Part shown: piece by piece, positions 19,428 through 37,647 of the stretch
How positions within the stretch are numbered: position 1 is the first letter of the stretch
Layout of the letters: each line of letters opens with the position of its first letter
Virus record (IMG/VR): IMGVR_UViG_3300027740_000003
Span: 32,001 to 96,000 of that record
Direction: 5' to 3' (one strand)
Length of the DNA stretch: 64,000 nt
Source of the DNA: a virus
Lineage: Duplodnaviria > Caudoviricetes
Notes under the pieces: model-generated
Databases searched by the model: none
What the model saw: only the letters and a program-made list of their open reading frames with translations
Told to the model about the DNA's origin: nothing
Program-made: the position numbers and the translations under genes

Positions 19428-19450
19428 ACTACGCCTTAAATTTAATTATA

Positions 19451-19786
19451 TTAAGTAATAATGTCTTTTATCATTAGTTCGTCTGGAGTTAGTTTTTTAA
19501 GATTGGGAAGAAGGTTGTTTATAAACGCATCTAAAGTAGGCAAACCATTGATATATTTAGTATTTTCCCAAATAGCAAGATTAAATCTTGCGCCACAAAT
19601 GATTAAAACAAAACTATGTAAAATCATTTTAGGATTGGGGTTTAAAACAATTTTTTCTTCACGAAATTTAACTTGTACCAATTCGTCTTTATTAAACGGA
19701 TAATAGCAACTACAATCATTCAGGACAACATATTCTCCTTCCGATATAAAACACTCTAGAAATATTTTGTCGTTAGGAAATCTCAT
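19451..19786 (-). CDS. Paralog family member 2
   Basis: FLECFISEGEYVVLNDC ... AFINNLLPNLKKLTPDELMIKDIIT. Confidence 0.8.
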   Translation of the reverse strand: MRFPNDKIFLECFISEGEYVVLNDCSCYYPFNKDELVQVKFREEKIVLNPNPKMILHSFVLIICGARFNLAIWENTKYINGLPTLDAFINNLLPNLKKLTPDELMIKDIIT

Positions 19787-20067
19787 GTTATGATGTCTTT
19801 TATCATTAATTCATCTGGAGATAATTTTCTTAAGTTAGGCAATATGTCGTTTATAAAATCTATTAAATGCCGAGTATCAAAATCATAATTAATACAAAAC
19901 CCAGTATATCCATAATCTCTATTTTTTGAGATGATTAAATAGTTTTCATCAATTTTAACTTGTACCAATTCGTTTTCATAAAACGGAAAATAACAATAAC
20001 AATTATTCAGGACAACATATTCTCCGTCCAATATAAAACACTCTAGAATTATTTGTTGGTTATTCAT
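19783..20067 (-). CDS. Paralog family member 1
   Basis: ILECFILDGEYVVLNNC ... DFINDILPNLRKLSPDELMIKDIIT. Confidence 0.8.
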   Translation of the reverse strand: MNNQQIILECFILDGEYVVLNNCYCYFPFYENELVQVKIDENYLIISKNRDYGYTGFCINYDFDTRHLIDFINDILPNLRKLSPDELMIKDIIT

Positions 20068-34758: not shown

Positions 34759-35744
34759 TGATCTAATAGCCTTAACTCATCAAAGATAACATAATTTGTT
34801 CCAACACAAGTATAATTTATAGCAGACAAAACAATTTTATTAAACATAACAGTTTGTGTAAAAGAAATCTGTTGACAACCATCAGCAGAAAGCTCAATAA
34901 AATCATCCGTTAACAGGTTCTGCTCCCAATATTCTCCAATGCTTTCCGGAGTATAGAAAAAGTTTCTAATAGCTAAACTGTCATCATTATACAGATCAAA
35001 ACTTACAGAGGAAAAGTTGTAAAAAGAAGGCTCGGGAGAAGTAATCCTAGAAGCATCAAGAGCAAAACACAGCTCTATACTATCAGAAGACATGGTTTGA
35101 TTAAACAAATATTCTTTGTAATTATAGATCGTACCACAGGCCGATTCTGTTTCACCAATGGCAGAAAATTGAATTATTTCACCATCCGAATTACAGGAAA
35201 CAATTGGGTTGCTTCCTTCGTTGGTATTAAGAATCCATCCGTCCAAAGAACTCATATCATCAACAACAGTATATTGATTTGTATCAGTAGCAGAACCGGC
35301 TGTATTAATCAATCCGGCAGAACCAGCAATATAAATAGAACCAGCGGCGCCTGCATAATCAAAAGATACAGAGCCGGCTAATTCAGCAGAAAATTTCCCT
35401 CCTCCAACACCACCAGTAGATTTAACCAGATGAATGTCTTCATCAATATAAGACGAAGTGGTTCCAGAGCTTCCGCCATTAGGGACAGATGGAGAACCAG
35501 AATTTTCTACAACAACTGTTCCTCCAGTATAATTTGAACCACCATTGTCAATATTAACTGTTCCTGAGGAACCGCTCTGAGCTACATTATAAATAGCCTC
35601 ACCAGAAGACCCGGCATACGTTGCTTCTCCACCATTATCTGCTGTTCCACCATTATCAGAATGGCTGATAGTAGTTAGTCCTGTTCCGGAAATTTGTCCA
35701 CAAGATAAACATAAAACAAAAGCTGCAATATAACAATTTCTCAT
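34755..35744 (-). CDS. Putative lipoprotein with Gly/Ser-rich linker and a C-terminal globular domain
   Basis: Signal ending LCLSC-G; repeated GG/SG/AGS motifs. Confidence 0.75.
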   Translation of the reverse strand: MRNCYIAAFVLCLSCGQISGTGLTTISHSDNGGTADNGGEATYAGSSGEAIYNVAQSGSSGTVNIDNGGSNYTGGTVVVENSGSPSVPNGGSSGTTSSYIDEDIHLVKSTGGVGGGKFSAELAGSVSFDYAGAAGSIYIAGSAGLINTAGSATDTNQYTVVDDMSSLDGWILNTNEGSNPIVSCNSDGEIIQFSAIGETESACGTIYNYKEYLFNQTMSSDSIELCFALDASRITSPEPSFYNFSSVSFDLYNDDSLAIRNFFYTPESIGEYWEQNLLTDDFIELSADGCQQISFTQTVMFNKIVLSAINYTCVGTNYVIFDELRLLDQ

Positions 35745-35746
35745 TT

Positions 35747-35989
35747 TTATTTTCTCGCTGGTGAACTGCTTGGAGGTTTTGATATCCTAACAGGACTCAT
35801 TCGAATGAATTTAATTTCATATTTTGAACAATACTTCTTAAAATCAGTTTCGTTGGTTTCTGGAACATCAATATCCCAATCGAAAGTTTTATCTGATAAA
35901 GATGAATATCTGTTTTTGACAGTAGCATCAAATGCATAAACAACAGTTTGAATTTTCTCAGATAATGCTTTAACGTTATACTTTACCAT
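35747..35989 (-). CDS. hypothetical protein
   Basis: Tiling ORF. Confidence 0.65.
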   Translation of the reverse strand: MVKYNVKALSEKIQTVVYAFDATVKNRYSSLSDKTFDWDIDVPETNETDFKKYCSKYEIKFIRMSPVRISKPPSSSPARK

Positions 35990-36004
35990 TTAATTAAACC
36001 TTTC

Positions 36005-36119
36005 GGGCTAAGTGTAGGATTTGAACCTACGTCTCCAAGATCCCTCTTGGGCTTTTCCAGATGCTATTCTTCTATTTCCTGGCGCAATAAAATTGTAGCA
36101 CACCTAAGCTAACTTAGCC
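36005..36119 (-). ncRNA. tRNA-like RNA with no anticodon (GGGA tetraloop), G-1:C73 His-type acceptor and an expanded D-loop
   Basis: G-GCTAAGT/ACTTAGC-C acceptor; GCTT/AAGC D-stem; CAAGA-GGGA-TCTTG; GAGAC; GTAGG-TTCAAAT-CCTAC T-arm. Confidence 0.8.
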
Positions 36120-36124
36120 AAATA

Positions 36125-36355
36125 TTATTCTTCGTAAGTAAGTTTATATTCTGTCTGTGGAGGAAACTCTTCAATCCAGTGATGTGGCTCAATGTCTTTA
36201 AGCTCATACGATTTGCTAGTTGTTGTATCAATAACAACTAGGTTGGTATTGCAGCCACCAAATTCAATACGCAGCCCTAGCTCGTCTGCTTTACAACAAA
36301 GCTCATCAAATTTTTTAAAGAACGGACTCTCTTCCAATAAGCGAAATGTAGGCAT
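36125..36355 (-). CDS. hypothetical protein
   Basis: Tiling ORF. Confidence 0.7.
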   Translation of the reverse strand: MPTFRLLEESPFFKKFDELCCKADELGLRIEFGGCNTNLVVIDTTTSKSYELKDIEPHHWIEEFPPQTEYKLTYEE

Positions 36356-36402
36356 TTTATGTTCTCGTCCTTAGCTAACTTAACCAAGATTTAGAAATTT
36401 AT

Positions 36403-36618
36403 TTATTCGTTATTAGTTGTCGTGGCGTTCTTGGGCATTTTTGCTTTGGCAATAATTTTTGCAATTCCCACAATGCTTCTTTGGAACTGGTTGCTTCCGG
36501 CTATTTTTGGAATTAAAGAAATTGGATTGCTTCAGGCGGCTGGAATTAATTTGCTTTGTGGAATTCTTTTCAAGGACACCACGACAACTGCTCCCAAAAT
36601 AACAACCAACTTATCCAT
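36403..36618 (-). pseudogene. Small membrane-protein gene whose internal segment is inverted
   Basis: Promoter, SD and ATG on the minus strand; body on the plus strand (36422-36578); re-inverting between the inverted repeats gives an in-frame 71-aa protein. Confidence 0.8.
36415..36589. repeat. Imperfect 19-bp inverted repeats (36415-36433 and 36571-36589) with a perfect 11-bp core AGTTGTCGTGG
   Basis: 17/19 match, read directly. Confidence 0.9.
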
Positions 36619-36651
36619 TTGTTTCTCCTTCTTTCATCCAACGGTCAGCAC

Positions 36652-36679
36652 AACATAAGACCTATCGGCCCCGCGTCAA
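36652..36679 (-). promoter_or_regulatory. sigma70-like promoter
   Basis: TTGACG-N16-TATGTT. Confidence 0.8.
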
Positions 36680-36830
36680 GGGCTTACCGCCTATAGAAGC
36701 ATCTTCTTTCACGGGATTTTGATTAGAATACACAATTAGGTTAAGAGGCCCGGCACTATGAACACATTTGTATTTTGCCGCAATGTAATTGTCGGTTTTC
36801 CACTTGCCAATAAAAATTATAGATTTAACT

Positions 36831-37142
36831 TTATTGTCCTCCACAAACCCTCTTCCAGCTTTTTAGAAAGCTATGTATGTTTAGTTTTCCAATTGGATTA
36901 GCAGAATGAACATCATATTCTGGTACTGGTCCATCAGGATATTTTTCTACCAACCATTTAAGAAAATCCATTGTTGTTTCGTTTTTACCAAGGTCATGAT
37001 CTAAATCCATAAACTCTGGCAAACCAAGAACATTAATAAAACTTTTAGCCTCTGCAATAGAAGTTGCCGGAAGAAATCCATCAGGAGCCTCCCGTTCTTT
37101 TACTTCAAAAGACTGATCGTCTAACCAAAGTTTCCAGGACAT
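36831..37142 (-). CDS. Cyclic-phosphate-processing receiver domain protein
   Basis: LWLDD, MDLDHDLG, DFLKWL, VHSANPIG. Confidence 0.8.
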   Translation of the reverse strand: MSWKLWLDDQSFEVKEREAPDGFLPATSIAEAKSFINVLGLPEFMDLDHDLGKNETTMDFLKWLVEKYPDGPVPEYDVHSANPIGKLNIHSFLKSWKRVCGGQ

Positions 37143-37145
37143 ATG

Positions 37146-37466
37146 TTAAAACAATGTAAATAGAAATACAATACCACCAAAACAACCAAGCAACATTAAC
37201 ACGAATACAAAACAACCAACGCTTCCAACAATAGCATTAGTAATACATTGTGTGGTTGGATTTGTTCCTTCTAATTCTAAGGAATTAAAATACTTTAAAG
37301 CCCTGCTTGTGTCATCAAATTTAAACAGCCCGTAAAAAACAGACCTAAATTGATCTTTGTCTACACAAGGATTGTGTAGATCATACCAATCACAAATACC
37401 TTCTAAATCTTTTGCTTTAATCAAATCACGAGCAACTTCAATATCAAGGCTGGTTATTCTTGCCAT
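37146..37466 (-). CDS. hypothetical protein with C-terminal TM helix
   Basis: Hydrophobic C-terminus. Confidence 0.65.
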   Translation of the reverse strand: MARITSLDIEVARDLIKAKDLEGICDWYDLHNPCVDKDQFRSVFYGLFKFDDTSRALKYFNSLELEGTNPTTQCITNAIVGSVGCFVFVLMLLGCFGGIVFLFTLF

Positions 37467-37647
37467 TTGTTTTAATCCTTCTGTTCAAAAGAATTTTTCT
37501 AGCCAGCTGAAGAAGTTCTACTGGAATGTTGCTCCCAGCAATGTTGAACTCATATTTGGCTTCTTCAGCAAGTTCAACGACATTATAGCCGTCCAACCCA
37601 GAAGTATCTTCCATGAATTTTTTAATTCTATCTACTCTGTCCATCAC
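37444..37647 (-). CDS. hypothetical protein
   Basis: Tiling ORF. Confidence 0.6.
   Translation of the reverse strand: MMDRVDRIKKFMEDTSGLDGYNVVELAEEAKYEFNIAGSNIPVELLQLARKILLNRRIKTNGKNNQP

Follow-up and report, generated by a model that had tools for sequence, protein, structure and literature searches.

A gene split between two strands

How does a gene come to have its promoter, Shine-Dalgarno sequence and start codon on one strand and most of its codons on the other, and is such a gene switched or broken? This question is raised by a small membrane-protein locus in a 64,000-nucleotide stretch of virus DNA (hereafter the window, to which all coordinates refer unless stated otherwise). The window comprises bases 32001-96000 of an IMG/VR virus record that is 435,004 bp long, has 35% G+C and is rated complete. 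The assignment of this record to a phage genome is supported; the source is an uncultured giant phage of 435 kb, and nearly every gene lies on the minus strand. The initial annotation of the locus described a gene switched off by an intragenic inversion between coding inverted repeats and took it for a phase-variable membrane protein in a phage, naming a one-off inversion or an amplification chimera as alternatives.

The expression signals can be read directly from the minus strand, as the initial annotation had them. A promoter-like site (TTGACG, 16-nt spacer, TATGTT; 36652-36679, minus) scored 9/12 in a consensus scan, and the Shine-Dalgarno sequence AAGGAG (36625-36630, minus) stands 6 nt before the ATG at 36618. 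Starting from this ATG, the head of the gene with codons 2-10 (36590-36618, minus) encodes MDKLVVILGA. The tail of the gene, N-N-E-stop, lies in the same original orientation at 36403-36414 (minus). Between the two sits a body of 153 nt (36426-36578), 51 codons that correspond to ancestral residues 14-64, and this body reads on the plus strand. The present product of promoter, Shine-Dalgarno sequence and ATG is a truncated peptide of 28 amino acids (36532-36618, minus).

A repeat search placed an inverted repeat around the body, with arms of 19 nt at 36415-36433 and 36571-36589 that are 89% complementary (17/19) and have 137 nt between them. Reverse-complementing the segment 36415-36589 in silico opened a single minus-strand frame of 71 codons with its ATG at 36618-36616; the product begins MDKLVVILGAVVV and ends DTTTTNNE-stop. 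The scripted flip returned the same exact in-frame product that had been proposed before, and the position and 17/19 match of the arms were also reproduced. Both repeats and the invertible segment lie wholly within this one coding sequence. Judged by its sequence, the membrane-protein gene as it stands is off and would give only the 28-aa stub.

A syntenic relative carries the intact gene

The most informative relative is the metagenome contig Ga0172380_10022981 (5,743 bp; hereafter L024), which is collinear with window 38954-33998 over 12 proteins, all on one strand, at 34-94% amino acid identity. L024 carries the membrane-protein gene intact, co-oriented and between the same neighbours, and its protein is 70% identical to the flipped product over residues 1-71. 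Seven of the ten residues encoded by the gene head are identical to the intact L024 N-terminus. The arrangement AAGGAG-spacer-ATGGATAAGTTG is present in L024 as in the window, and the alignment keeps both promoter hexamers (TTGACA ... TATGTT in L024) with four substitutions in the spacer between them.

We then compared L024 with the unmodified window by blastn, which returned three segments in the order minus/plus/minus: window 37190-36577 (minus, 78% to L024), 36415-36582 (plus, 81%) and 36359-36061 (minus, 69%). On L024, the first two of these share 13 nt, which are the repeat. The strand changes fall at 36577-36589 and 36415-36427, both inside the arms, and the inverted body, 81% identical to L024 at the nucleotide level, lies on the strand opposite to both flanks. 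After the flip, the nucleotide alignment runs collinearly from promoter to stop with one single-codon difference, located in the Thr run. The flipped frame of 71 codons has the length of the L024 gene, with no gain or loss at the junctions. Because a syntenic relative carries the gene intact and the unmodified alignment switches strand at the arms, this comparison of sequences shows the flipped, co-oriented form to be ancestral and the window to be a derived inversion with breakpoints in the arms. The proposal that the gene was broken by an intragenic inversion between coding repeats is borne out by the same alignment.

The wider family agrees with this polarity. Among 95 family loci collected from IMG/VR and from metagenome scans, none has an inverted or broken arrangement. 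In the syntenic giant-phage relatives L005-L007, the upstream 103-aa gene is present at 50-57% identity, and the flanks examined contain no homologue of the membrane-protein gene; these relatives carry no information on orientation.

Next, we estimated how far the broken gene has decayed. Compared with L024, the whole gene and the head alone both have a dN/dS of 0.38, the inverted body has one of 0.42, and the 51 inverted codons contain no stop and no frameshift. These values suggest that the gene was under purifying selection for most of its divergence from L024. Since neither head nor body has decayed (dN/dS of about 0.4, no stop or frameshift), we infer that the inversion is recent on the scale of that divergence.

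The alignment with L024 also revealed several differences in the surroundings. The membrane-protein gene has a promoter-like element of its own (window 36640-36690, minus; L024:2395-2440), in which the hexamers are conserved and the spacer has diverged, and about 13 nt preceding the -35 hexamer (window about 36691-36703) have no counterpart in L024. Further upstream, a 60-aa ORF with a GTG start (36662-36844, minus) shares 14 nt with the end of the 103-aa gene; since this ORF is conserved in L024 (78% over 45 residues), the apparent intergenic gap may hold a genuine small gene. L024 also has an extra ORF of 112 aa (L024:1091-1429), placed between its counterparts of the 113-aa and 67-aa genes that abut in the window, a difference that looks like small-gene turnover between close relatives.

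The plus-strand reading frame

On the plus strand, the inversion would have created an ORF of 78 amino acids with a GTG start (P0003; 36422-36658). Of the first helix it retains 14 residues, and its Thr run is followed by a new, unrelated tail of 22 residues. Neither a Shine-Dalgarno sequence nor a plus-strand promoter-like site upstream was found for this ORF, and it is probably not expressed.

We considered whether P0003 could be a genuine opposite-strand gene and rejected this reading on account of the absent Shine-Dalgarno sequence and promoter and the truncated first helix. It is further ruled out by the minus-strand head, whose conserved promoter, Shine-Dalgarno sequence and MDKL are orthologous to the L024 N-terminus. 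The short length of the plus-strand ORF is not decisive by itself, since a naturally short first helix exists elsewhere: the locus L025 (L025:2498-2668) has 13 residues before PTMLLWNW, compared with 22-35 in nearly all other members of the family.

The flipped product belongs to a family of small membrane proteins

To which family does the restored protein belong? A tblastn search with the plus-strand body reached 262 T4-like cyanophage records, in which the match is annotated as hypothetical protein or T4-GC_444. The ORF as it stands matches the profiles phrog_705 (E 2.4e-11) and phrog_2169 ('membrane protein'; E 9.8e-8), and a Pfam search gave no family for it. Members are 64-78 aa long. 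Their N-terminus is short and leads into a hydrophobic helix, which is followed by the motif PTMLLWNWL-P-IFG, a second helix with ILFK at its end and, finally, 6-12 residues of polar tail. In the 95 family loci, the ATG mostly stands 22-35 aa before the MLLWN motif, and the polar tail is short.

The flipped product has these features. Four columns are invariant in our alignment of 37 sequences (A1), namely M30, W33, N34 and G53; by inspection, the flipped product carries all four together with the near-invariant P28, L31, L32, L36, P38, A51 and L57. Its hydrophobic stretches span residues 1-37 and 46-62, and for the L024 protein AlphaFold predicts a hairpin of two helices (H3-40 and H48-61) with a mean pLDDT of 79. 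In the flipped product, 27 residues precede PTM, the same number as in L015, another protein that starts with MDK; the tail of the flipped product, TTTTNNE, resembles the tail TTTRRND of P0004. Only the flipped form has the two-helix architecture of N-terminal transmembrane helix, motif, second helix and polar tail. By these sequence features, we assign the flipped product to the phrog_705/phrog_2169/T4-GC_444 small two-helix membrane proteins, which are widespread in phages and include members from T4-like cyanophages (cyanomyoviruses) as well as from uncultured phages. Outside the window, several small ORFs share a C-terminal tag and end in ...IKDIIE or ...IKDIIL (genome positions 19431-19982, 168749-169039, 187660-188553 and 420147-420679).

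The inverted repeat is coding and lineage-specific

Within the arms lies an exact core of 11 nt, AGTTGTCGTGG, at 36415-36425, with its reverse complement at 36579-36589. As had been pointed out in the initial annotation, the repeats themselves are coding: the right arm reads VVV on the minus strand and TTT(T) on the plus strand. The Val-Val-Val codons GTT GTC GTG of helix 1, reverse-complemented and with the frame shifted by one base, give the Thr run ACC ACG ACA AC, which sits in the C-terminal tail of the flipped product. Because the arms read as Val-Val-Val and Thr-Thr-Thr, the repeat is a by-product of coding.

The repeat is more than chance, since none of 100 codon shuffles of the membrane-protein gene produced an inverted repeat of 11 nt, the core 11-mer occurs in the 435,004-bp genome at the two arm sites only, and no second event was found. 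The last statement comes from a genome-wide scan, which recorded 1453 perfect inverted repeats of at least 10 nt with spacers of 20-1500 nt. At 13 of these, the membrane-gene repeat among them, a spanning ORF exists only after the flip. We inspected eight of the 12 other ORF-restoring flips and found fusions of intact neighbours, a single intact gene lengthened beyond its stop, or a long gene, itself intact, leaving the scanned region; these eight contain no second inversion of the membrane-gene kind, and the remaining four, outside the inspected set, are short plus-strand frames.

The relatives were then examined for the same repeat. Its counterpart in L024 is a quasi-palindrome of 10/12 without the extension, compared with 11/11 and 17/19 in the window. 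In 17 other homologues, the best inverted repeat measures 6-9 nt, lies at other positions and is roughly at codon-shuffle level, with the exception of L001, L020 and L023, in which at most 6 of 100 codon shuffles were as good. Across the sequences compared, the inverted repeat appears lineage-specific, and neither the restriction of its core to the two arms nor the comparison with these homologues gives a sign that the repeat sites are maintained.

A second repeat was noticed nearby. It is a 19-nt near-duplicate (17/19) at 36369-36387 and 36103-36121, and the window has no further copy of its 15-nt core TTGGYTAAGTTAGCT. One of the two copies falls within a spacer of 47 nt that directly precedes the 76-aa gene (36125-36355); L024 lacks this spacer, and 4 nt separate its membrane-protein gene from its homologue of the 76-aa gene. 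ARAGORN detected no tRNA in window 35800-36800.

Is the segment a programmed switch?

The initial annotation favoured phase variation. For a programmed switch, a host recombinase or an unrecognised phage recombinase would flip the segment reversibly and turn the membrane protein ON or OFF within the population. The anatomy is that of the 'premature stop' class of intragenic invertons, with the repeats inside one coding sequence, the expression signals outside and both halves undamaged. A reversible switch would also be expected to leave the body undamaged, and the better repeat in the window lineage than in L024 speaks for a switch as well.

The phage genome itself offers no candidate enzyme, however. 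A six-frame HMM search of the 435,004-bp genome with profiles for the three known catalytic types of invertase, serine recombinase (PF00239), tyrosine recombinase (PF00589) and IS110/Piv-type recombinase (PF01548) gave no match, whereas control genomes were matched; the earlier observation that the window holds no invertase therefore extends to the whole 435-kb genome. Further copies of the core in the genome could have marked a family of sites, and the 11-mer is confined to the two arms. The repeat is conserved neither in L024 nor in the 17 homologues, all 95 family loci are intact, and the coding of VVV and TTT accounts for the repeat. We therefore regard a programmed intragenic inverton as very unlikely. 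Of the original proposal, the inversion and a membrane-protein family member encoded by a phage stand; phase variability is not supported, and the one-off inversion that was listed as an alternative is the better reading.

A probable recent one-off inversion

We consider it likely that a recent one-off inversion, independent of any recombinase, knocked out a dispensable gene for a small membrane protein. The central 153-175 bp of the 71-aa gene would have been inverted once, recently, between short coding repeats, and this would have inactivated an accessory gene that the phage can spare. Two routes could achieve this without a recombinase. Replication could have switched template between the arms, with a single strand folding so that the arms form its closing stem, or short-homology recombination could have joined the arms during phage replication, which is an equally good route. 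The predicted single-stranded DNA fold indeed closes on the arms with -28.8 kcal/mol (z -3.06), and 0 of 200 shuffles folded as well.

[quoted passage not shown]

In yeast, template switching between short inverted repeats inverts the spacers and homogenises the arms (Abraham and Hazkani-Covo 2021, PMC8604942). The more perfect repeat of the window lineage (11/11 and 17/19, against 10/12 in L024) fits such homogenisation, which one outgroup at about 80% nucleotide identity cannot prove because it assigns neither direction nor timing to the changes. The template-switch spacers in the yeast study are 2-5 nt long, and with a spacer of 153 nt, far beyond this range, the exact route at our locus may have been either template switching or short-homology recombination.

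In the same yeast study, inverted spacers between perfect short repeats were found to flip back within short evolutionary times (PMC8604942). This raises the possibility of an enzyme-independent flip-flop, in which the segment inverts and reverts at low frequency, both forms coexist and the assembler reports the commoner one. The undamaged body would agree with this. However, the yeast reversions concern spacers of 2-5 nt, and we expect a very low rate for a 153-nt spacer between 11-nt arms, so that we hold a flip-flop to be quite unlikely.

How often the inverted form occurs bears on all of these readings. A DNA-level search of the phage collection with window 35700-37500 gave zero matches, and a 31-nt degenerate pattern covering both junction orientations found nothing in IMG/VR. 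A protein search at more than 90% identity returned the window's own P0003 on one contig and no other, and exact look-ups of two neighbouring proteins returned no other contigs. As the phage is known from a single record, the inverted form need be neither fixed nor the major form in the sampled population.

A single metagenome-assembled record with no second copy is also what would be seen if the phage DNA were intact and the inverted form had arisen in library preparation or amplification, from fold-back or chimeric molecules, or in assembly or polishing. Fold-back chimeras are seeded by structures of the sort predicted here, a single strand folded back on the arms, and an artefact would leave the inverted body undecayed. 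On the other hand, a clean inversion requires two matching chimeric junctions that both win the consensus. The repeat alone (11 nt exact, 17/19) cannot confuse an assembly graph, since 11 nt is shorter than the k-mers usually employed by de Bruijn assemblers. Nor is there a systematic sign of such errors, as no further inversion of this kind was found among the 1453 short repeats (eight of 12 candidate flips inspected). Taken together, we consider an artefact improbable.

If the one-off inversion is correct, the locus is one more accessory phage gene lost to a known type of spontaneous rearrangement, and alone it matters little. Its value lies in the clarity of the example: an intact syntenic relative is at hand, and a short coding repeat, a Val run against a Thr run, turned a gene into a disguised pseudogene. 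Gene callers annotate such a pseudogene as a plausible ORF on the opposite strand, and P0003 was indeed recorded as a 78-aa protein. For candidate 'invertons' in metagenome-assembled phages, read evidence is needed before they are called switches. Were a programmed switch nevertheless true, phage genomes would gain their first described intragenic inverton, carried by a giant lytic phage on a coding repeat of 11-19 nt.

Comparison with known systems

In the known phage inversion systems, Mu G/Gin and P1 C/Cin, a serine invertase gene adjoins the segment, the specific crossover sites measure about 26 nt or more, and inversion exchanges alternative C-termini of tail fibres. The locus studied here resembles them in that a phage-borne inversion changes the protein that is made. 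Unlike Mu and P1, the window phage has no invertase gene, no specific crossover sites and no tail-fibre swap.

The intragenic invertons of bacteria come closer in anatomy. There as here, repeats and segment lie within one coding sequence, and one orientation gives the full protein while the other gives a truncated one. The definition of bacterial intragenic invertons requires both orientations among the reads of one population, and an invertase is presumed to drive them (Chanin et al., 10.1101/2023.03.11.532203), whereas our locus is known from one assembled sequence, in a phage genome without an invertase and with a repeat that is not conserved in relatives.

As a protein, the flipped product sits well within the phrog_705/phrog_2169/T4-GC_444 family by its profile matches, its PTMLLWNWL-P-IFG motif, its ILFK end with a polar tail and its length of 71 aa within the range of 64-78. 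It differs in that the window copy is broken by the inversion, in a family that has neither a known function nor a Pfam model.

The closest likeness is to spontaneous inversions between short repeats. The replication system here is that of a giant phage, and the spacer between the cores is 153 nt long, compared with 2-5 nt in the template-switch inversions of yeast (PMC8604942). Other features are shared. No recombinase appears to be involved, and the event affects the coding sequence of a single lineage, with the uninverted state in L024 and in the 95 family loci. The arms also pair better in the window than in L024, which may reflect homogenisation. Both breakpoints fall inside short arms (11 nt exact), and the spacer between them is exactly reverse-complemented, with nothing gained or lost.
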